A stretch of 15,301 nt of DNA from positions 1-15,301 of the forward strand of contig JBHIAT010000081.1 of the NCBI GenBank assembly GCA_046758705.1, read 5' to 3'. A program made the position numbers and the translations under genes. The stretch is from Candidatus Bipolaricaulia bacterium (GTDB taxonomy: Bacteria; Bipolaricaulota; Bipolaricaulia; JBHIAT01). The notes beneath the pieces were generated by a model. It did no database searches and had not been told where the DNA came from. It saw only the letters and a program-made list of their open reading frames with translations. Positions 942 to 15,255 of the stretch are shown piece by piece; positions within the stretch are counted from its first letter, which is position 1, and every line of letters begins with the position of its first letter.

Positions 942-1283
942 TCATCCTCCATCACTTCCCGGAAGACTCTTACCGACATACCCTGACCGGACTCGCTTGC
1001 CTTCCCTCCAGTAAGCGTACCAGTACGGGCCGTGTAACTCGCCCTTAGTGCACTTGCAGTTAGGTTTACCACAACGCACCCGCTCCAGTCGGTAGCAGCA
1101 CGATTTAAGCTGCCGTACCTCGACAACCTCACGCCCCGCCTTGACGGGTATCTCCTCAATCTCCAGCCCATCTAGTTCTTCCAGCAGCTGGTGCAGGTAG
1201 CCATCCACGTCGTACAGCTCACCCAGGGTCAGCCGCCCCAGGTCTGACTTGACCCGTTCCGCTATCTTATGTAACCTTGCCAT
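942..1283 (-). CDS. DUF6788-like small Cys/His protein
   Basis: RCGKPNCKC..GELHGPYWYAYWREG..YVGK motif; AAGGA just upstream of ATG. Confidence 0.75.
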   Translation of the reverse strand: MARLHKIAERVKSDLGRLTLGELYDVDGYLHQLLEELDGLEIEEIPVKAGREVVEVRQLKSCCYRLERVRCGKPNCKCTKGELHGPYWYAYWREGKRVRSGYVGKSLPGSDGG

Positions 1284-1325: not shown

Positions 1326-1720
1326 TTAGATTTCCAGTTTCACGAAAAGTCTAAAATATCCTGCTGAAGGCTATTTCGATCATTTGTCGGTCGTTCCTAT
1401 GGTTCGGTCGGCGAGAGGCTGCCCACAGCGGGCTCTTTGAACTTTCGGTTGGTAAAGACAAATCCAATTACCGTCTACACTACATCACTCCGTATGGAAA
1501 CTCGTAGTGCACCAGGTGGAACAGCCACTCTCCTGCACGTTTTTCCAGGATGCCAATCAGACGGCCAAAGTAGGTCTTCGTCTCGCCGCCGGTTGTACGG
1601 TGCAGATTGACGTTGCATCCTATCCACGCCACCGTCCCTACCGCCTTGACATAACTCCAAACGATCTCCACCGACGATGCATCAGTCTCAGACCAATCTT
1701 GCTTGAGCCTCGCTCTCACT

Positions 1721-2483
1721 GGCTGTGGGCACCATCGGTTGGTAATGCCTTCTGTCTGTTTTGTAAGAAAGCTTACATCTACCTGCCATTTGATCTCTTA
1801 AAATAGGGTTATGAAGAACCAAAAACCAAACTAAAGGGAGGGGGTAAAGGTGAGGAAACGAATCATATGGGCGATGATGTTCGCCATCGCCTTGGGGTTC
1901 TGGCTTTCAGGGATGCCTTCAACCTTCGCAGACACTGTAGAGCTCACCGAGACCTATATCATCCCTGGTTTTGGGTTTAGTATTGACCTTCCCGCTGACT
2001 GGACTGTCTTGACAGACGGTCCCGTATTGCAGGCTAGGGGAGTGGTTCTCAGCGATTCGGAAGATGGGACAGCCTATCTCGTTGGTATTGCCATAGATCA
2101 CCGGAGCAGGCAGTGGTTGAAGGAGAACCGTGGACTTCCGCTGGATGCCACATTAGAAGACTTGGTGGAATTTAACAAGAGGGTAACGAGCCTTGGGGAA
2201 TTAGAACTCTTTGAGGTCACTGAGGTAGAAATCTTTGGCGTTCCGGCACTTCGTACCAAAAGTCAAGTCAAAGACGCAGGGGGCCCAGGGATCATGTATC
2301 AGGGCTTTAAGGATGATGAAGCCTTTCTAATCGCCTTCGGTACAGGATCAGAGGAAGAGTATGGAGATTTCCTTCCCATATGGAACAAGATCCTAGAAAG
2401 TATCAGACCTGTCGATGAGGAGTAACGAGATTCGGCATAGCTCTCAAATTGTTTCGCATTACCAACCGACAGTTCCCAGAGCC
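1721..2483. mobile_element. Inner 763-bp non-autonomous TIR element (mobile-insertion-cassette-like) with one passenger gene
   Basis: TIRs GGCTGTGGGCACCATCGGTTGGTAATGC (1721-1748) and revcomp of 2456-2483 GGCTCTGGGAACTGTCGGTTGGTAATGC, 24/28 identical; flanked by 8-bp direct repeat CTCTCACT. Confidence 0.92.
1850..2425 (+). CDS. Secreted protein, possibly PsbP/Mog1/DcrB-like fold; passenger of the inner element
   Basis: Signal peptide MRKRIIWAMMFAIALGFWLSGMPSTFA; GFSIDLPADW near the N-terminus and ILESIRP at the C-terminus; G-rich RBS at ~1836-1844. Confidence 0.7.
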   Translation: MRKRIIWAMMFAIALGFWLSGMPSTFADTVELTETYIIPGFGFSIDLPADWTVLTDGPVLQARGVVLSDSEDGTAYLVGIAIDHRSRQWLKENRGLPLDATLEDLVEFNKRVTSLGELELFEVTEVEIFGVPALRTKSQVKDAGGPGIMYQGFKDDEAFLIAFGTGSEEEYGDFLPIWNKILESIRPVDEE

Positions 2484-2791
2484 CTCTCACTTCATCCGGG
2501 CCAAGCGCGCCAGCCACCCATCCAGGACGCTTTTCGTCCGGCCCAGGTCCCAGAACAGCTATGTCAGAGTCAGGCGCGAATCGTGCCAACACGCCCTCCA
2601 TATCGCGCTTTTCGTAAGCCTGAAGGTAGGCATTTAGCGTCGCTATCACGGCGGCTTCAGTCTGGCTGTCGGCTTTCATAGGCTTTCCTGCTCCTCCTCA
2701 GAGCTGTATCTTTGCCATCATCATAAGCTCTAAACCCTGGTTAACGCAAGGGATTCTATATTACCAACCGAAGGTTCATAGAGACATAGAG

Positions 2792-2812
2792 GGCGCTAGG
2801 AACTATCGGTTG
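2792..2812 (+). repeat. Fifth copy of the same TIR family, facing right toward the Mrr gene
   Basis: GGCGCTAGGAACTATCGGTTG matches the inner-element right TIR at 18/21; begins 6 bp after the outer element ends. Confidence 0.7.
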
Positions 2813-3213
2813 ACACCAGTTTGGTCTTTCCATCCCACCTAAACCCTCCTCGTATCCTGATCAGGCGGTTGGATTTCGGGCCCTCGTTTCAGTTTACGCC
2901 TGGGAAACAATCCAAACTCTCCAGACTTACACTGGAACGGGTGCTGACGGTGAGAAGTACCATTGAGACGGCAAAAACCTTGAGTCTCTGAATATAGCTA
3001 CCAGGATCAACAGATTACTGACGCTAATGTCATCCGTCCCCTGTGGCCTATATATCCCCAAGGGTAGCCGTTGCAGTGGTGAGGGCAATAGCAGGTGCTC
3101 AGGATACATTGAGGGATTTTGACAGTCTTCCCAGGGATAACTTATATTAGAAAAAAAGCTCCTCGCCTCTTGGGGGACCTTCAAGTCCATCCTTTTGTAA
3201 GGGGGATGATTCA

Positions 3214-3318
3214 TTGAGTGATCACAGGTTTATCTGGATCTCATTAGCTTTTTTGGTAGCTTTTGGAACCATAGCAAGTAGAGAAGGGCAAATAGGCAGA
3301 TTCAAAAGGAGGAGGTGA
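3214..3318 (+). CDS. Putative 34-aa membrane peptide immediately upstream of the Mrr gene
   Basis: TTG start after AAGGGGG; LSDHRFIWISLAFLVAFGTIASREGQIGRFKRRR; its stop lies at the Mrr start region (GTGA at 3315-3318). Confidence 0.35.
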   Translation: MSDHRFIWISLAFLVAFGTIASREGQIGRFKRRR

Positions 3319-3320
3319 GT

Positions 3321-4187
3321 ATGAGAAGGCTAAGGTTATTCCGATCCCTACAAGAACGGGACAGGCGCGAACGAGTGCTCGATGAAACACTCACCAAATT
3401 CGTAGAGCGATATATTATGCAAGGACGGCGCAACTCTCAGGATTACCAAGCGCTTCAAGATCTCCTTAAAGAAGATGGGATCAAGCTTTCCGTCGAGCGG
3501 CTAAAAGCTTTGGTGGACCAAAAGACAAAGGAACTCTTTTACAATCGTCTAAAAGAGGCACTGTCAACGGCGCAGACTAGAGAAAGCGCTTTAGAGGCGC
3601 TTGTAGAGTCGGGATTGACTGATAAGTTAGAAGAGACTTGGAGCTTCTATGCCCCTCTTATTCTCGATTACCTGAAAAATAGGCAGTTGAAGGGATGGTT
3701 TATGAATGAAAACCGGCTGTTACGGGAACTAGAAAAAGCGAAGGAGCGACTAATCCGTAGAAATCGCAAAGAAACTTTGAAAGAGGTTTTAGAAGGTGGA
3801 TCGATACCCCAGAGTATTGAAGATATCGATAAGATGGAAGGGCACGAATTTGAGGATTTCCTAGAACACCTCTTTAAGAAGATGGGTTTCCAAGTGGAAC
3901 GTCCGCCTTTGGCACGAGATAAAGGGGCAGACCTTATCGCAGCCAGATTAGGGGAAAAGATAGCTATCCAGGCCAAGTGCTACTCTGGATCTGTGGGGAT
4001 CAAAGCTGTGCAGGAGGTTTCTGCTGCTAAAGACTTCTACGAGTGTGATCGGTCTATGGTCGTCACAAATAGCTACTTCACCCAGGATGCTCAAACTCTA
4101 GCTGAGACTATCAAAGTGGAGTTATGGAATCGTGACAAGTTAGCACAAGTCCTTAGAGAATATCCCATATCATTTCCGAAAGCTTAG
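3321..4187 (+). CDS. Mrr-family (Mrr_cat) restriction endonuclease with a helical N-terminal region
   Basis: EFEDFLEHLFKKMGF...DKGADLIA...IAIQAKCY...AVQEV...VVTNSYFT (D..D..QxK); AGGAGGAGG favours ATG 3321 (GTG 3315 is an alternative). Confidence 0.88.
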   Translation: MRRLRLFRSLQERDRRERVLDETLTKFVERYIMQGRRNSQDYQALQDLLKEDGIKLSVERLKALVDQKTKELFYNRLKEALSTAQTRESALEALVESGLTDKLEETWSFYAPLILDYLKNRQLKGWFMNENRLLRELEKAKERLIRRNRKETLKEVLEGGSIPQSIEDIDKMEGHEFEDFLEHLFKKMGFQVERPPLARDKGADLIAARLGEKIAIQAKCYSGSVGIKAVQEVSAAKDFYECDRSMVVTNSYFTQDAQTLAETIKVELWNRDKLAQVLREYPISFPKA

Positions 4188-4198
4188 ATTTTTCCGAC

Positions 4199-4230
4199 AG
4201 GAACTAGCCTCAAGCATATTTTTAGTTCCT
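4199..4230 (+). terminator. Possible hairpin after the Mrr gene
   Basis: AGGAACTA (4199-4206) pairs with TAGTTCCT (4223-4230); large loop and weak U-tract. Confidence 0.3.
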
Positions 4231-4405
4231 CTAAATTTTCCCAAAGGTGCGCCTTATTGTTCCCCTTTTCCCCCTTTCAAGGTTGAGACTATCAGCTTGA
4301 TAAAATGTATGTCAAGTCAGGGTAACACCTATGCCCCAAGCCACGAACGGGAATAGAAAGACCGACATTACACGACAGAGTATTTAAGAGCAATAAAAGG
4401 TTTTT

Positions 4406-5733
4406 ACTCATTTTTTGCACCTAATCACATCCCGCTTCATATCGCCATCAGCTCCCCTTGCTGCAATTGTCCATCCAACAACGGCATCAACCAGGACGCT
4501 TCGTGCTCCAGGTAGTGGATCAACCGCCGGCTCACCCGTATCCCGAGGCCGTCTCTCTTCAGTCCGGCCATCACCCCCTTCCCCAGCCCGCGCTGGCTCA
4601 CCCGCCACGATGTCACTCCCACCTCGCCCACGCCGTTCCGTCTTCCCCCATGCCGCTCCGCCCAGCGCCGGTCTGCTGCCAGCACATACGCCAACCATAC
4701 CAGCTCCACCCATCGCTCCAAGCTCTCCTGCCCACGTCCCTGGCAATCCTCCAGTCCGAACTGCTGCTTCAGCTGCTTGATCAACTCTTCAATCCACCAC
4801 CGCCGCCTCATGTGACGCCGCACCGGCACCGCGCCCAGCTCCACCAGCGTCGTCACCAGCGTGTAGTGCCGTCCACCCCGCACCCGGTGCACGATCTGAA
4901 CCGGCCGCGCCATCCCGTTTAACTGTACCACCTCTCCGGTCGCCGCCTGCCGCGCATAGCGCCCATCCTTCAACCGCCGATTCTCCACCACATAGCTCAC
5001 CAATCCAAAGCCCCGTTCGTCCACCGCTTCGATCACCGACTCGTCCAACAGGCTGCAATCGATCACTACTACGACCTGCCTCTTCCCGCCATAGGGCGGT
5101 TCAAACGACCGGATGAGCTCGGCCGTCAGTTCCGTCTGCTTGTGAAAGTCCTCTGCCTTGACGAACCGTTCGTTCACATAGGTGCGCCAATCCCACGGGG
5201 CGATGATCTCCCCGACCCCCACCGCTGAGATCACCAGCTTCTGGCCCCACACCACCGAGTCGGTGCGGCTGTCGTAGTGCCAACCCAACTGGGGCAGGGT
5301 CTTGCCTCGCTTGGCCAGGACGGTGGTGTCGATCATGAGGTAGATCGTCGGGCGGCGGCCGCGACGCCGGAGATGGTGATCGATGATGGCCGTTTCGATG
5401 CGAGCACACCGCAGGGAACGGATCGCTTGGTGCGGCCACTCGTCGGCGGAGAAGGCCCGAGACAGGGCGGAGATGCTGACCAACAACACCAGATTGGTGA
5501 AGGTCTTCTTGCCTTCGCGGACCATGAGGCCGAGGACCATTGACAGGAGGCTGCGCCAGCGGTAGACTGAAAGTTGGGCCTTGAAGGCCTGTTTCAGACG
5601 TTTGTAGACGTGTTTGGGCATGGTGCCCCCTCCTTTCTTGCGTTTGAAAGAAGGGTACCATGCCCATTCCCGTTGATGCGAGCCTCAGGAATCCCCTTTG
5701 CATCTTAGTTTCCCCGTGGTGCAAAATATGAGT
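4406..5733 (-). mobile_element. IS701-like insertion sequence (~1.33 kb)
   Basis: TIRs ACTCATTTTTTGCACC (4406-4421) and GGTGCAAAATATGAGT (5718-5733), 15/16 identical, enclosing one transposase. Confidence 0.85.
4437..5621 (-). CDS. DDE transposase, IS701/IS4 superfamily
   Basis: LMIDTTVLAKRGK, VVIDCS and RRRWWIEELIKQLKQQFGLEDCQ motifs; AGGAGG RBS. Confidence 0.88.
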   Translation of the reverse strand: MPKHVYKRLKQAFKAQLSVYRWRSLLSMVLGLMVREGKKTFTNLVLLVSISALSRAFSADEWPHQAIRSLRCARIETAIIDHHLRRRGRRPTIYLMIDTTVLAKRGKTLPQLGWHYDSRTDSVVWGQKLVISAVGVGEIIAPWDWRTYVNERFVKAEDFHKQTELTAELIRSFEPPYGGKRQVVVVIDCSLLDESVIEAVDERGFGLVSYVVENRRLKDGRYARQAATGEVVQLNGMARPVQIVHRVRGGRHYTLVTTLVELGAVPVRRHMRRRWWIEELIKQLKQQFGLEDCQGRGQESLERWVELVWLAYVLAADRRWAERHGGRRNGVGEVGVTSWRVSQRGLGKGVMAGLKRDGLGIRVSRRLIHYLEHEASWLMPLLDGQLQQGELMAI

Positions 5734-5734
5734 T

Positions 5735-6844
5735 AAAACGTTTGACTCTTGGTTCACTGCCCGTATGAAACAGTGCGTCGGCAAACAGGCGTGTGCCATG
5801 ATCAAGTCTGCTACCGAGAAACGACGCAAGCAATACTACATGCTTGCCAAGCTACAACGCGAGGGCCAGGACACCAACTACCTGCAACGCAAGATTGACC
5901 CCAAACCGTTGGTCAAGCCCAATGCCGAGAATGCCAACGCTGAACTAGACCCACGGTTCATCGACTTCCAAGAGAGCCGCGAGTTCGATCTCTTTGTCAG
6001 AGTCAAGACCATCGGCACCGGTATGACGTTCAACATTCCGATACGTCATACCAAGGTCAGCCTCAAGTGGCTTGACCAAAGCCCAGGCGAACTCAAAAAT
6101 TTCATCCGACTGACACCCAACGAAGTTATCCTAATCTATGATGTCTTTGACTCACCTAAGAAGCGGGGGGTAACTGTCGGATGTGACCCAGGCTATAAAT
6201 CCGTCGTCACCTTGTCCGACGGGCAGACGACGGGACCCGATCCGCACGGTCACACGTTGGAGTCCATCCAAAAGAAGCTGACGCGTCGCCAACTGGGCAG
6301 CCAGGGATTCAAACGCACCCAAGCCCACCGGGAGAATTACATCAATTGAGCGCTGAACCAACTTGATTGGTCTGATATGGGTAAGGTTCGGCTTGAGGAA
6401 GTAAAGCGGTTGCGCTACGGCAGGCGCAATAACCGCCTGATGACCCACTGGACCTACACGGTGATAAACCGGAAGCTGGACAGCCTCAGCGAAACGGACG
6501 GTTTCCGTCTAGTTGAAGTGCCAAACGAGTTTCGTTCCCAGCGTTGTAGTGCCTGTGGGTGGGTTCGCAAAGCGAACAGAACAGGAAAGACGTTCACGTG
6601 CGACACATGTGGTTTCATCACGGATGCGGACTTGAATGCAGCTTCCAATCTGGAGCTTGACCTCTACGAGGTTCCCGTCTGGGTGCGACGGCAGGGTCTA
6701 AACCGTGAAGGGTTCTACTGGACCCCTGACGGTTTGTACACGGTCGGTCACGAGCCTATAGTCCGTGATCCCATTGAGCGAACGGAATATTCCTCTATTC
6801 TTTTTGCAACTATTTCGGGAGTGGTGGCACAGCCAGGAAAATGA
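5735..6844 (+). pseudogene. tnpB: TnpB/Cas12f-like RNA-guided nuclease, 5'-truncated at the IS and with an internal TGA
   Basis: RuvC-I VGCDPG, RuvC-II VRLEEV, zinc ribbon SQRCSAC..FTCDTC, RuvC-III DADLNAA; ORFs 5765-6349 and 6377-6844 share a frame, separated by TGA 6347-6349 (ENYIN*ALNQL); frame runs back to the IS end (KTFDSWFTARM). Confidence 0.85.
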
Positions 6845-6940
6845 ACCGGGAGGTTGATCTGCATGACATGAGCTCACGTTCTCGCATCTAAAATGTCGGT
6901 TTTTGGTGTAGAATAAAGAGTGAATCCCAAAAACACATCC

Positions 6941-7013
6941 ACGACAAAGGCAAACTCACCGAAAGGTGGGGGCGCAAAGCCGCGGATCCGAAAGGAAAGT
7001 CGGGCTACCAAAG
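6941..7013 (+). ncRNA. c-di-GMP-I (GEMM) riboswitch aptamer 1
   Basis: AAAGGCAAAC-TCACC-GAAA-GGTGG-GGCGCAAAGCC...GGGCTACC consensus; enclosing arms AACACATC (6932-6939) / GATGTGTT (7013-7020). Confidence 0.88.
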
Positions 7014-7026
7014 ATGTGTTACCGAC

Positions 7027-7112
7027 CTCGAAAGGGTAAACCTCCCGAAAGGGAGGGACACAAAGCCACAGACCCTAGCGTAATAGAGCCGAGGGTGGCT
7101 GGGTTGCCGAAG
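7027..7112 (+). ncRNA. c-di-GMP-I (GEMM) riboswitch aptamer 2 (tandem)
   Basis: AAGGGTAAAC-CTCCC-GAAA-GGGAG-GGACACAAAGCCAC...GTGGCTGGGTTGCCG consensus. Confidence 0.88.
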
Positions 7113-7256
7113 GGCGACAAAAGCGTACAACCTAAACTCAACTTGGACAAGTTGGGCCTCACCAGCCACCCTATCGGTTTAAATCTTCCTGCTCTGATTA
7201 CGCTTCTCAACAGTTCAAGCCGGTTTCATCCTTATAAGGGGAAGGAGGGAAAATTC

Positions 7257-7472
7257 GTGGCAAAACTCCCGAAGGCGAAGGTGAACTTGATGGTCGACGC
7301 ACCGTTGTACATCGATGCCAGGCAACAACTCTGGCCTCATCTCTCACGGATCTTCGAGGTTGCGTTGAGACGGGCCTTGCGATTAAAGGCCGAGGGGATT
7401 CACGTGGATCAAATTATAGCGGAGATCGAGGGAGCTGAGGAAGTAGTTCCTTCATCCCAGTCCCAGGGGTGA
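7257..7472 (+). CDS. 71-aa CcdA-like ribbon-helix-helix protein
   Basis: AGGAGG at 7243-7248 before GTG 7257; KAKVNLMVDAPLYIDARQQLWPHLSRIFEVALRRAL fits a beta-strand/helix/helix pattern. Confidence 0.65.
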   Translation: MAKLPKAKVNLMVDAPLYIDARQQLWPHLSRIFEVALRRALRLKAEGIHVDQIIAEIEGAEEVVPSSQSQG

Positions 7473-7531
7473 GAGGCGCGATTTTGGGCAATGTCGGAAC
7501 GCTTAAGACCTTCCAAGTAAGCGGTGAAGAC

Positions 7532-7552
7532 GCCCTGTAGAGAGGGTTTTTC
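7532..7552 (+). terminator. Putative intrinsic terminator
   Basis: GCCCT-GTAGAG-AGGGT followed by a T run, between convergent genes. Confidence 0.4.
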
Positions 7553-7592
7553 TATCATAAGGAGTCTGTCACCGTTTGACGTATAACGTAAC

Positions 7593-8339
7593 TCAGACCC
7601 TGAAGACCCAGTTGAAGATCGACGGCACGAGCAACGTCACGATCGCCCCGAGACTTAAGAACGGCCCGAACGGAACCGTCGCGCGCCGGCCCGCCTTCCC
7701 CCGAGCGATCAAGATCCCGCCGATGACTGAACCGACCACCGACGCGATCAGCAGGGTGATGAACAGATTCTGCCAGCCGAGGAACGCGCCGAGCATCGCC
7801 GCCAGCTTGATATCCCCACCGCCCATTCCCCCCTTGTATAGTACGCCCAACGCCCAGAGCAGCCCCCCACCGGCCACCGCGCTGGCGAGCGCGGTCCAGA
7901 TGGAGATGTCCCCGAGCCAGAGCGTGCTCAATAGCCCGAGCAGGATCCCGGGGAACGTGATCCAGTTGGGGATCCGTTTGAACTCAAGGTCGATGAACGT
8001 CACCACGATCAGCGCCGAAATCAGAACCAGGGCAACGATTCGGTGAGGCCAATCGTCGAGCACCAGGTAACTCGCCAGAAACAGCAGCCCAGTCAGCCCC
8101 TCGATGATCGGATACCGCCAGGAGATCGGCTCATCACAATATCGGCACCGCCCGCCAAGCAGGGTGTAGGAGAGGAGTGGGATGTTGTCGTAAAAGTTGA
8201 GCTGTGTCTGGCAATTGGGGCAGTGAGAGGCCGGGTGGACGATCGACAGACCTCGGGGGGTGCGGTAGATAATGACGTTCAAGAAACTGCCGATGCTCAG
8301 GCCCAGGATGAACAGGGCGGCGGCGTAAACAACGGTCAC
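7593..8339 (-). CDS. pilD: Type IV prepilin peptidase (A24)
   Basis: GSFLNVIIYR, CPNC and CRYC zinc motifs, FIDL and GMGGGDIKL catalytic aspartates, VPFGPFL. Confidence 0.95.
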   Translation of the reverse strand: MTVVYAAALFILGLSIGSFLNVIIYRTPRGLSIVHPASHCPNCQTQLNFYDNIPLLSYTLLGGRCRYCDEPISWRYPIIEGLTGLLFLASYLVLDDWPHRIVALVLISALIVVTFIDLEFKRIPNWITFPGILLGLLSTLWLGDISIWTALASAVAGGGLLWALGVLYKGGMGGGDIKLAAMLGAFLGWQNLFITLLIASVVGSVIGGILIARGKAGRRATVPFGPFLSLGAIVTLLVPSIFNWVFRV

Positions 8340-8575
8340 ATCCCCTCCGACGCCTCGAGTTGAGTGATACCCTTCAACTTACTCAGATCGATATCTCATG
8401 ACGGTTTCCGACAAGGCATTTTAACGGACGCCCCGGCACAATGCAAGCTGAGAGATCGGTGAACCGGTCCCTCGGCTTGCCGGATACCCCCCGAAGGTAT
8501 AAGATGGTTGACGTAAAGGCCGTTTTATCGGCGGCCTATGGCTCAGAGATCTGGATTCTGAGGGGAGCGAATTTG

Positions 8576-9916
8576 ATGGCCCCGAGCTGGACTCTTGAAG
8601 AAGCTGACCCTGAACTCAGTGAGTTGCTGCACCAGGAGGCGAAGCGGCAACATGATGTTCTGGAACTTATCCCCTCAGAGAACTACACTTCACTGACAGT
8701 GCTCGAAACACTCGGCTCGGTGTTGACCAACAAGTACTCCGAAGGCTACCCCAATCGCCGCTATTACGGCGGCAATGAGTTTATCGATCATGTGGAGCGT
8801 CTGGCGCAGACGCGGGCCAAGCGCCTGTTCAAAGTGGCACATGTCAATGTGCAACCTTACTCAGGCTCACCGGCGAACCTGGCCGTCTATCTCGCCACCT
8901 GTCAACCCGGCGATCCGATTATGGGACAACACCTCACCGACGGTGGTCATCTGACACATGGCTGGCGGGTGAGCGTGACCGGCCAGTGGTACCGGAGTAT
9001 CCCCTACCATGTCGATTCTGAGGGATGGATCGATCTGGAGGAGGTGGAGCGACTGGCGACGGATCACCGTCCCCGGTTGATCTGGGTCGGGGCGACCGCC
9101 TACCCCCGCCAACTCCCATTCGAGGCGTTCGCAAAGATCGCCGATCGGGTGGATGCCTACCTGGTTGCCGATATCGCCCATGTGGCCGGGTTGGTGGTAG
9201 GGGGAGTGCATCCCGATCCGGTTCCTCATGCTCACATCATCACCACCACCACCCACAAGACGTTACGCGGCCCCCGGGGGGCGTTAATCATGGTGACCGA
9301 GCGGGGACTTGACAAGGATCCCAAATTGCCCCACAAGCTGGAACGGGCCGTCTTCCCAGGATTGCAAGGGGGCCCCCACAACCACGTGATCGCCGCGATC
9401 GCTGTAGCGCTTAACGAGGCCGACGGCCCGGCCTTCCGGCGCTATGCCCGTCAGGTCGTGGCCAATGCGAACGCGCTGGTTCAGGAGCTGATCGAGCTGG
9501 GTTTCCGGTTGGTGACCGGCGGGACGGACAACCATATGATGTTGGTGGACTTAAGCCCGATCAAACCGGGCTTCGGCAGTTTAGCTCAGGAGGCCCTGGA
9601 GCTCGCTGGCATCGTGGTGAACAAGAACACTATCCCCAAGGAGCCGAGTTCTCCGTTCTATCCCAGTGGGATGCGGTTGGGGACGCCGGCGGTCTCCACC
9701 CGAGGCATGGGGGAGGAGGAGATGCGAAAGATCGCCCACTGGATCGATGCGGTGCTAAACGAGGCGAGTGCCTATCAGCTACCGGATGACAACCGTCCCG
9801 CCTTCCTCAAACGGTTTCGGGAGGAGATGGCCGAAAACCAGGTGATCGTGGAGATCAAGCAGGCTGTCCGAGAGCTGTGCGCGGCGTTCCCTCCTCCGAC
9901 TCCTGCGCCGCGCTGA
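8576..9916 (+). CDS. glyA: Serine hydroxymethyltransferase
   Basis: LIPSENY, NKYSEGYP..RYYGG, GGHLTHG, TTTTHKTLRGPRG (PLP lysine), FPGLQGGP; GAGGGG before ATG 8576. Confidence 0.97.
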   Translation: MAPSWTLEEADPELSELLHQEAKRQHDVLELIPSENYTSLTVLETLGSVLTNKYSEGYPNRRYYGGNEFIDHVERLAQTRAKRLFKVAHVNVQPYSGSPANLAVYLATCQPGDPIMGQHLTDGGHLTHGWRVSVTGQWYRSIPYHVDSEGWIDLEEVERLATDHRPRLIWVGATAYPRQLPFEAFAKIADRVDAYLVADIAHVAGLVVGGVHPDPVPHAHIITTTTHKTLRGPRGALIMVTERGLDKDPKLPHKLERAVFPGLQGGPHNHVIAAIAVALNEADGPAFRRYARQVVANANALVQELIELGFRLVTGGTDNHMMLVDLSPIKPGFGSLAQEALELAGIVVNKNTIPKEPSSPFYPSGMRLGTPAVSTRGMGEEEMRKIAHWIDAVLNEASAYQLPDDNRPAFLKRFREEMAENQVIVEIKQAVRELCAAFPPPTPAPR

Positions 9917-11738: not shown

Positions 11739-11987
11739 TCATGTTGCTTCCCTGGTACAGTTTGCGATTTCATCATCTTCATCGAGCGATACCAGTTGGG
11801 TCTCCGGTTGCGGCAAGAACGCAACCAACAGGTTGACCAACCTCCGAATCCTCACCCGTGCTCGAAACTGTGGAGGCCGCAGCGAAGGCGGTTGCGCCGC
11901 TCGCACCAATCGGGCCCGCTCTGCCTCCCGATGGAGTTCCTCCATCCTGGCCTGTCCCAGCCTCATGGTGAGATATGGGTGATACAT
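11739..11987 (-). CDS. 82-aa hypothetical protein leading the ABC operon
   Basis: AAGGAG RBS; helical RMEELHREAERARL; second diverged copy nearby. Confidence 0.65.
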   Translation of the reverse strand: MYHPYLTMRLGQARMEELHREAERARLVRAAQPPSLRPPQFRARVRIRRLVNLLVAFLPQPETQLVSLDEDDEIANCTREAT

Positions 11988-13132: not shown

Positions 13133-13385
13133 CGTGTTGCCCCCTGGTACAGTTTGTGCTTTCATCATCCTCATCGAGCGGTACCAGATCGGGTCTTCGG
13201 CTGCGGCAAGAACGCAGCCAACAGGTTGCCCAGCCTCCGGATCCTCACCCGTACTCGAAACCGTGGAGGCCGCAGCGAAAGCGGTTGCGCCGCTCGCACC
13301 AATCGGGCCCGCTCTGCCTCCCGATGGAGTTCCTCCATCCTGGCCCGTCCCAGGCTCGCGTTCGGTATTCAGAACAGTGGAACAT
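13117..13385 (-). pseudogene. Frameshifted duplicate of the 82-aa gene and its 3' flank (matches ~11725-11964)
   Basis: ~240 bp of high similarity, offset 1392 then 1393 (1-bp insertion near 13188); ATG 13385 is out of frame with the conserved MEELHREAER. Confidence 0.8.
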
Positions 13386-13391
13386 CCCTTC

Positions 13392-15255
13392 CTATTTGGA
13401 TAAACGTGCATTCATGATCATGAGGAACAGTTGTCCAATTGCTTCGTCGGGGATGCTCCATGCTACATCTGTATTTACGCGATGAACCAACACCAATTTG
13501 AGGTCCGGTACGATGGCAAGCACATGAACGCCAATTCCTGTGTGGTAATAAAATGGATGTCCGACGGACTGTGCCAATTCAGAGCCTTCCGGAGCCACTT
13601 TCCACAGATATCCATACCCTTGGCCTGATGCACTATCCACAACCGAATATGAAGTCGTACTTTCAGCAAAATCCCAGTTATTGTAGTAGTAAAAGGCACC
13701 GGGTGGATGACTGCCTCGTTCCGGACGTGAATCTATCATCGATTGTGCTTCAGCGGCTGCCTCATGGTAAACGCCGGAGCGGGATTTCAGCAGGTCGCTG
13801 ACCTTTGCTTGTTTTTCTTCAGCCGTCAGACTGGGAGGTATATCATCGATGTTCAAATCCTCCATGGTTGCATCCAGGTCAATTTCGCCGCGTTCAACGT
13901 GAATGCCATAAAGTGCACTGGGAAAAGGTTTTCTAATAGAATGAACCAGGAAATTCCTTGTCACCTCACCCCATGAGAAAAAGACCTTCCCGTCGTAAAC
14001 CGCCATCACGGCAGCAGAACCGATTTGCTCAGCAAACCTTCCTGCTTCCTCTAATTTTTCAGATGACCACCCTACTTCCTCAGGCGAAACATACTCAGGC
14101 TCATTATCATTATCTACTGTATCTTGCTCAGACTCATCGGTTACTTCGGTCGGAGGTGCCTGCGCGTTGATCCTTTTGAAAGTGAACGTCTGCCCCTCTT
14201 GTTCGAGTACAGCTTGAGTCACCTGCCCGGTTTCATCTGTGATGAATGTCACTTCAAAATCAACTTCATCTCCATCAAAGTCTGTGTGAAAGAAGCTCGT
14301 TTCTGATCGCGGAAACAGCTCAAACATCGGCCCGCCCCACATAGAAAGATCCACATAGAGTTTGTCATCCTCGCGCGTCACTGCAATAAAAGGGAAGGGT
14401 AGTTCGCTTTCAGCCAATTCAGCTGGCACCTCATACTGCCCCACATAACCGTCATAGACCTTCGGGTCGACATCCGTCGCAAGTCCCAGCGCCGCCAGTC
14501 GTCCCTCAAGATATCCCTGTGTCTGTGTCTGAATATCTTCCAGTCGACCTCTACCGACGCTGGCAAACAGCATCTGATAGGAGAAGAGCTCTCTTTCGAG
14601 GATCTCCCGCACATTGCTGTCTGTGTATTGATTCAACTGGTTCATCAGGTCACGCGCATTCGCTTCCCAGTCAATGTCTGGTACGATCTTTCCGTATTGA
14701 GGTTGGAACGGGTGTCCTTGTAACGTTGGGTAAACCATCCGAGCCCATACGGAAGCTCGGTGCCGGCCGTCGACACGGTGGGCGTAAACATCTGGTCTTT
14801 CGTCTGTTGACGGACCAGGAGGTTCTGATCGATGGCGATGTCGAATTTGACCAGGTCGACAACGGTTATGAGGCCGGCGGACGCGCTGAAACTCATCGGG
14901 TAATACCCCGCCACGATTCCGTACGTTGGGTCAAATCGATACGGTCTGGCGAGTTCCCTGAGAACGTGAGTAAAGTCTCTGCCACTCCAATTCGTCATGA
15001 GGCTGGGGGCCGTGTTCATCATGTCGAGAGGTTCAAGAATTCTCTCGATCAAAAGCTCTGCGAATGACCGACCAGAGGCCTGCTGGATCACTTGGCTCAG
15101 CAGGGCGAAACGACTTCCATTGTACCTGTAGAAGCTGCCAGGATAGCCTTCGGAGGTATGCGACAACAGATGCTTTACTCGGACAACCCACGGGCTTTCT
15201 AGATCAACACCATATTTGGATATCGGATCATCCAGATCGAGTACACCCTGTTCCT
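13392..15255 (-). pseudogene. Decayed multidomain serine hydrolase (beta-lactamase family): partial domain, DUF3471-like linker domain, second beta-lactamase domain
   Basis: GVLDLDDPI..VKHLLSHTS..FYRYNG..ILEPLDM..YGLGW in frame 1; frame change near 14700-14740; second domain with SIRK (SxxK), YYYNNWDF and HTG; 5' end cut near 15255. Confidence 0.8.

Follow-up and report, generated by a model that had tools for sequence, protein, structure and literature searches.

The window, by which we mean the whole 15,301-nucleotide stretch from a Candidatus Bipolaricaulia bacterium that was analysed here, carries five related ends at 1431 (+), 1721 (+), 2483 (−), 2785 (−) and 2792 (+), in agreement with the five that a preliminary description of this DNA had placed at these positions. 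The remainder of the window holds a minimal nucleotidyltransferase gene (Polbeta-like, 315–722), for which no HEPN partner was seen and whose next ORF looks truncated; an IS701-like element (4396–5743) with a 394-aa transposase and 26-bp inverted repeats (88%), which has a relative on contig C153; and, directly after this element, a TnpB/Cas12f-like gene split in two frames (5765–6844). Farther to the right are two tandem c-di-GMP-I-GGC riboswitches above the Rfam gathering score (6940–7112), with a third similar 23-mer nearby (7259–7281), a direct repeat of about 215 bp (11750–11964 and 13142–13357, 88–93%, spacing 1392–1393) ahead of two unrelated genes, and a Beta-lactamase-like/DUF3471 gene in two overlapping frames, apparently frameshifted (13392–15166). 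The features on which the analysis centres are as follows.

1420..1430 (−): possible remnant tip of a further end, back-to-back with 1431; the tip of end B is matched at 10 of 11 bases
1431..1455 (+): left end of the outer cassette; 34 bits, 3 differences from the 2785 end
1480..1720 (−): SnoaL-like gene, 3' half; stop 24 bp inside the outer end
1713..1720 (+): target duplication, left copy; identical to 2484–2491
1721..1747 (+): end B of the inner cassette; equals the C157 IRR (27/27 to C157:2799-2773, similarity stops beyond)
1850..2425 (+): passenger gene, 191 aa, likely secreted, PsbP-like; PF18933 (PsbP_2) E 3.6e-4, below cut-off
2459..2483 (−): end A of the inner cassette; equals the C157 outer left end (25/25 to C157:595-619)
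2484..2491 (+): target duplication, right copy; identical to 1713–1720
2492..2679 (−): SnoaL-like gene, 5' half; reading frame and SnoaL_3 match
2680..2760 (−): promoter/ribosome-binding module separating the SnoaL start from the right end; ends on C107 and C247 share it in register
2761..2785 (−): right end of the outer cassette, damaged tip; 32 bits, starts GTC
2786..2791 (no strand): 6-bp spacer between two back-to-back ends; p about 1e-4 per end
2792..2816 (+): solo end facing the Mrr-type nuclease gene; 28.6 bits, no partner end on the contig
3315..4187 (+): Mrr_cat restriction-nuclease gene; PF04471 E 8e-32

A profile built from the five window ends scores 20 bits or more at 17 sites of the 3.70-Mb genome (319 contigs), these five included, compared to 0 and 0 sites at the same threshold in two reversed-strand controls, and the five ends are therefore not a product of chance. 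The refined profile, which yields 21 sites against 0 in the control at 21 bits, describes an end of 25 bp with the core GGAAC..CGGTTGGTAA and a GG tip. For the possible remnant at 1420–1430, which was noticed post hoc, the genomic frequency of such matches to the end-B tip is 1.1e-5 per position, and a profile-based test gives only p=0.07.

The inner element (1721–2483) measures 763 bp, lies between identical 8-mers CTCTCACT (8/8) and contains a single ORF, that of the passenger (1850–2425), whose hydrophobic N-terminus was read by eye as a signal peptide. Six homologues of this protein were found at 34–40%, together with 86–92% paralogues in a related sample, some of them in tandem; in run X4, the region matching window positions 1943–2417 holds such paralogues in a tandem array with a 23-bp spacer. 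The element splits the SnoaL-like gene, and excising it restores a 142-aa frame and an empty site of 584 bp. Of the nested arrangement that had been proposed, the 763-bp element inside a 584-bp unit holds; the inner element is flanked by a duplication, whereas the outer unit has none of its own. Run X4 contains both outer halves (5 differences in 350 and 4 in 268), ending at 1713 and resuming at 2518; over the inner gene it offers 86–92% paralogues only, with no contig spanning the junction at a depth of about 3. No read or contig representing the empty, pre-insertion site was seen, including in run X4 at that depth, and no second copy of either cassette is present in the assembly (93.9% complete). 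The sequencing runs that contain this DNA all belong to a single study, with no RNA run listed among them, and X1–X3 may have been the source of the assembly. Ends A and B and the duplication carry no mutation, which suggests that little time has passed since the inner insertion. MICs are defined in the consulted part of the source as two IS ends without a transposase that enclose at least one gene, span about 0.7–3 kb and are mobilised in trans (PMC6199540), and the inner unit fits each feature assessed (IS-related ends, a passenger without a transposase, a duplication and a cognate IS). That it is a passenger-only cassette which arrived by transposition is thus supported.

The outer unit, at 584 bp, falls slightly under the MIC size range (0.7–3 kb), and its flanks, CCACAGCG on the left and ATAGAGGG on the right, form no target duplication. 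Its right end opens with GTC in place of GGC and falls within a 7-bp repeat of period 8 (CATAGAG at 2777 and 2785), so that the tip at 2785 has probably been overwritten. The SnoaL_3 matches of the two gene halves are weak (E 0.002 and 0.004, below cut-off); a search with a SnoaL half returned itself as the sole match, and the gene is single-copy in this genome. The module upstream of the gene is 70% identical over 70 bp to its counterpart on C107 and contains candidate −35/−10 boxes read by eye, on which a promoter scanner made no call. Since similar modules also occur on seven other contigs without any end, the module would be host DNA that was captured once.

The missing duplication and the damaged tip, together with the frequency of solo ends in this genome, would also be expected if the outer unit were a chance pair of solo ends around a host gene that never moved as a unit. 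We consider this unlikely, as the two ends face inward and differ at 3 of 25 positions, with 1431 being the nearest neighbour of 2785 (the next has 5 differences), and as they enclose a single gene with its promoter, the left one just 24 bp past the stop, with no other genomic copy of that gene. This question is independent of how the inner unit arrived. Six base pairs to the right of 2785, the further end that had been described at 2792 is indeed present, but its partner is absent anywhere on the contig; the Mrr_cat gene could possibly be its passenger.

Both ends of the inner cassette recur on contig C157, where the end at 595 (+) equals the window 2483 end (25/25) and that at 2799 (−) the window 1721 end (27/27). 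The identity between the two elements stops at 27 and 25 bp, their interiors share nothing, and these are the only identical pairs among 22 ends compared, from which it follows that the inner cassette was likely moved by the IS6-like enzyme of C157. The interior of C157:595-2799 comprises a cytochrome c gene, a decayed same-direction end (IRL) at 1709, such that same-direction ends stand on both sides of the cytochrome c gene, and a 351-aa transposase ORF (1772–2827) that is single-copy in the genome. The IS itself measures 1091 bp, and the transposase frame runs out through the right end with no stop inside the IS. No target duplication was found around the C157 element. The view of these motifs as transposon ends is thus borne out, both by a duplication-flanked pair and by identical ends around a transposase element, and so is the statement that neither cassette encodes a transposase, the ends alone being shared with the transposase element; the autonomous DDE partner whose existence had been conjectured is present on C157. 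An IS6-type gene on C110 was also considered as a partner and rejected, its ends being classical.

The C157 transposase carries an N-terminal CxxC-CxxC ribbon (C13/C16/C40/C43) and a D130/D203/E255 triad that is invariant in 46 aligned homologues. It scores over the PF13610 cut-off (30.3 vs 27 bits), and its best model is NF033587 (IS6), with E 2e-14 and 53.7 bits, which is below the cut-off of 125. The predicted fold is of the RNase-H type (pLDDT 87) and matches integrases and ISCth4, among named relatives in PLSDB ISCpe7 comes closest (23% over 90% of the length, E 3e-14), and the protein cluster of a homologue bears the NCBI name 'IS1/IS6 family transposase'. Among the 46 homologues, the IS6 model matches all 46 and is the best model (best E 1e-44), the IS1 model matches 43 and the IS1595 model 7 (best E 1e-8), with no match of the latter to the C157 transposase itself; the IS1595 lead of the preliminary description is consequently not supported. 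A quick tree of 33 rows, none of them from IS26 or IS1595, places the C157 transposase together with P0002 and P0154 in a separate clade (SH-aLRT 100) on a long branch, in an open fork with ISCpe7 and an archaeal-type group. The 25-bp ends share the GG tip with the IS6 family and depart from its other end criteria (15–20 bp, cTGTt and caaa motifs). Given this departure and the score below the IS6 cut-off, we call the enzyme IS6-like, outside the named clades; the lineage thus appears to be IS6-like and not IS1595, an assignment on which the end logos of the IS6 clades could bear.

Across the host genome, our hand-checked set comprises 23 ends on 16 contigs (5 in the window, 3 on C157, 2 on C43 and one on each of 13 contigs); profile sites on C67 and C113, which fall in long coding frames, were left out, and those on C278, C52, C22 and at C43:4148, which came from weaker or gapped searches, were included by hand. 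A partner search guided by duplications over 21 ends returned the inner pair alone, and pairing of flanks across contigs gave no other exact 8-mer and two pairs with 2 mismatches. The genome yielded no third complete cassette, both complete ones lying in the window. Gapped profiles, the controls of which gave 0 matches at E<0.1, bring out left-end/leader relics on C43, C278, C112, C107, C196, C30 and C22 and a right-end relic on C21. Of these, C43:3965-4148 is a 184-bp internal-deletion derivative, and C107 holds an end, a LysM gene and then an IS leader with a truncated transposase start, that is, a decaying C157 layout.

Many solo ends lie 70–290 bp upstream of a start codon. We note several gene neighbourhoods of this kind: two rhodanese paralogues, 80% identical, each stand directly behind a solo end, on C227 (L004 2136–2539) and C49 (L008), and at C112:4783 (L002) a left end with an IS leader occupies the promoter region of an IMP-dehydrogenase-like gene (named by eye), opposite a multi-copy sigma-factor gene. 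The DUF6788 gene of the window (942–1283) has a 62% paralogue on C209, 171 bp behind an end of the family to which the cassettes and C157 belong, so that the window copy may be an older passenger.

Within the phylum, a narrow transposase profile finds 1 of 184 genomes, the host itself, and a broad profile 10 of 184, with no convincing end at the 16 relative loci fetched with the latter. The end pattern occurs in 3 of 184 and 4 of 149 genomes, with one site in each relative, that of G099 falling in a coding frame, and with one control match; the end family is thus not general in the phylum sample. The exact pattern gave 0 matches in each of the metagenome, genome and viral collections, as did a looser pattern in the viral collection. 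A search with the transposase alone against the genome contig collection returned 8 candidates, none of which was confirmed, and phages gave no match.

The closest counterpart comes from a metagenome: on contig L026 (of 118 candidates, 2 were confirmed), a 61% identical transposase lies in an IS of 1089 bp whose ends are of the same type. Its IRL differs from inner end A at 2 positions, its IRL-to-ATG distance is near-equal to that on C157 (64 vs 63 bp), and its transposase frame likewise runs out through the IRR. P0002 and P0153, members of the same protein cluster, are alike up to the IRR and differ right after it, which points to two insertion sites. No target duplication was found at the L026 IS. 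A decayed copy lies just upstream, with its right end 5 bp from the intact left end, such that the end-to-end stacking seen at 2785/2792 (6 bp) recurs in a relative; among 30 ends tested, these are the only two back-to-back junctions.

More distant members of the clade were inspected at five viral-contig loci (L028–L032). L028 carries a 4.84-kb element (3745–8584) whose 54-bp ends start GGCTCTGG; it is flanked by a perfect 8-bp duplication and contains four passenger ORFs, from which it appears that the clade makes 8-bp duplications and carries cargo. The transposase of this element has a SWIM+Zn+DDE composition, its ends contain four repeated boxes, and its passengers include a PD-(D/E)XK nuclease and a STAS-like protein. 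L029 has one end of the L028 type, and L031 and L032 show nothing clear; on L030 (5034–9397), an inverted pair, for which no duplication was found, surrounds a related transposase and a methylase-Mrr fusion. Ends with a duplication were found at 1 of 9 transposase loci tested. At E<=0.001, the homologues number 3945 proteins, many of which are probably ordinary IS6.

Taking these observations together, we consider it likely, with a probability of roughly 0.7, that the inner 763-bp cassette was inserted in trans by the IS6-like transposase of C157, a reading based on sequence comparison. The transposase would recognise only about 25 bp at each end, and would cut and join with an 8-bp stagger; with recognition confined to these ends, anything between an A end and a B end would move. 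Passengers may have been gained at the inner edge of the left end, as the C157 and C107 layouts suggest, and loss of the transposase gene would then have left the cassette dependent on the C157 copy. The outer 584-bp unit would be an older cassette of the same family with later rearranged flanks, and the many solo ends may be relics of a long residence of this IS family. According to the excerpted IS6 review, replicative rearrangement of the IS6 type separates the original flanks (PMC7986276), and a later (cointegrate) event of this kind could have parted those of C157, L026 and the outer unit, all without a duplication, which is a fit and not proof. The pile-up itself would arise because the locus is a tolerant plasticity region, with the IS701-like element and the split TnpB within about 3–4 kb of the cassettes, and because new insertions tend to land 5–6 bp from a resident end. 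We see in this signs of end targeting in the IS6-like lineage; the missing duplications and back-to-back junctions are only compatible with cointegrate formation or targeted integration.

An origin without movement in trans is quite unlikely by comparison with the evidence at hand: here, the inner unit would have arrived as an autonomous, passenger-carrying IS, with its transposase subsequently deleted in place. The order of end, passenger and transposase on C157 and C107, the existence of the internal-deletion derivative at C43:3965-4148 and the lack of a second copy of the cassette are all in line with such a history. Such a deletion would, however, need to stop exactly at the 27-bp end and leave no transposase or leader behind, while C43, C107, C30 and C21 do keep such remains, and the unmutated ends and duplication imply that little time was available for it.

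A further reading treats the ends as att-like crossover sites that the transposase joins end to end (cf. IS26), with interiors being swapped and units of an end plus a gene accumulating in arrays, as in an integrase-free analogue of an integron. It would account for identical ends around unrelated interiors with identity halting at the edge of the end, for the same-direction ends flanking the cytochrome c gene on C157, for one end-plus-promoter module ahead of different genes, and for back-to-back junctions in two organisms, and targeted integration is known for IS26 in the available part of the review (PMC7986276). By the same excerpted account, IS26 targeting reportedly requires both the transposases and the ends to be identical, and what it exchanges is the flanks and not the interiors. 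The promoter module is also found without an end, and the inner cassette entered a coding sequence, not an end. The non-random clustering on which the preliminary description had touched holds when 18 are placed uniformly (three elements in 1.4 kb, p=2.6e-4), but p rises to 0.015 or 0.115 with only 15% or 5% of the genome open to insertions. Furthermore, 13 of the 16 end-bearing contigs hold one end, and the window array is the longest. We regard this reading as very unlikely. The related proposal that bare 25-bp ends double as landing and crossover sites, with a unit docking 5–6 bp off resident ends and genes being swapped in an integrase-free integron analogue, is in our view quite improbable; if true, the genome would accumulate promoter-equipped one-gene cassettes, and a large family of cargo transposons would have been overlooked in the wider Zn-ribbon clade, which numbers thousands of metagenome proteins, most of them unclassified. 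The integron-like stockpile that had been suggested is weakly supported, in the face of no third complete cassette, the predominance of contigs with single ends and no integrase or att-type site. By inserting into a coding sequence, the inner element destroyed the outer passenger, which is the opposite of stockpiling.

The GGCnnTG start of the ends presumably also fits IS1595 members. A motif that is a transcription-factor site, as the many solo copies 70–290 bp ahead of start codons might suggest, or that belongs to an IS1595-family element, since 25-bp ends and an 8-bp duplication also fit members such as MTnSag1 in the part of the source considered (PMC5704250), has a negligible probability and is largely refuted by the 8-bp duplication in mid-gene, by the L026 IS, as in two organisms a transposase gene is bounded by the motif and its frame continues through it, and by the IS6 models that best match the cognate transposase.

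The preferred reading, insertion in trans by the C157 enzyme, has a bearing beyond this locus. One genome would supply a natural test set, namely a likely active transposase, a passenger-carrying partner and a cassette that has only 25–27 bp per end in common with it. How MICs acquire genes is unexplained in the excerpted literature searched, and the C157/inner pair sets the swap points at the edges of the ends. If 25-bp ends suffice, this would be a very compact gene-delivery unit, and among the distant members of the clade there is at least one cargo transposon, of 4.8 kb, that has related ends.

In comparing these cassettes with known systems, we draw on partial texts of the cited papers. 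By kind, although not by family, they correspond to described MIC/tIS elements, those of IS231 and TnXax1. As here, MIC231/IS231 (IS4 family, Bacillus cereus group) has transposase-less ends around one or more genes, and in autonomous IS231 elements additional DNA separates the left end from the transposase (PMC2266710), a layout that C157 matches. MIC231 differs in its IS4 transposase, against an IS6-like one here, and MIC231s have a conserved CA region beside the left end, whereas here nothing past 25–27 bp is common with the partner. TnXax1 (Tn3 family, Xanthomonas) likewise has an autonomous carrier, MICs with varied passengers, solo ends beside genes and clusters with >2 ends in plasticity regions, but it uses a Tn3 transposase, 33–97-bp ends and 5-bp duplications (PMC4337579), and its ends number at least 264 occurrences across an order, as opposed to one genome and a few metagenome records here. 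IS6 clade h (ISCpe7) and tIS ISDsp3 share with the present elements a 340–350-aa transposase, an N-terminal CxxC zinc finger, GG tips and 8-bp duplications (PMC7986276); unlike them, the ends here lack the cTGTt/caaa motifs and are 25 bp long, in a 1.09-kb IS, and the ends of ISCpe7 itself look different. The IS1595-family tIS MTnSag1/tISCpe8 also combine 25-bp ends, an 8-bp duplication and one passenger (PMC5704250). Their enzyme is of the IS1595 type, whereas the C157 transposase has no IS1595 match.

Integrons are tightly packed one-gene units that depend on a tyrosine integrase and on attC-type sites in the same direction. No tyrosine integrase was found among the 18 window ORFs scanned, and the cassettes here differ in having their own promoter-like region, inverted nested ends and a duplication, in forming at most three units, and in the absence of an attC-like site nearby.

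In the excerpted 2021 review, the IS6 family includes two MITEs and one passenger-carrying member, and no passenger-only cassette (PMC7986276). The literature within reach (ISfinder/TnCentral and subscription papers lying outside it) likewise reports no passenger-only IS6-like cassette and none of these ends. The kind of gene shuttle described here is thus already known, and what is new is its IS6-like driver, an unnamed family of ends and the bareness of these ends at 25–27 bp. Passenger-only cassettes would thereby be extended to IS6-like elements, whose best-known member, IS26, moves genes in another way, by means of flanking copies.
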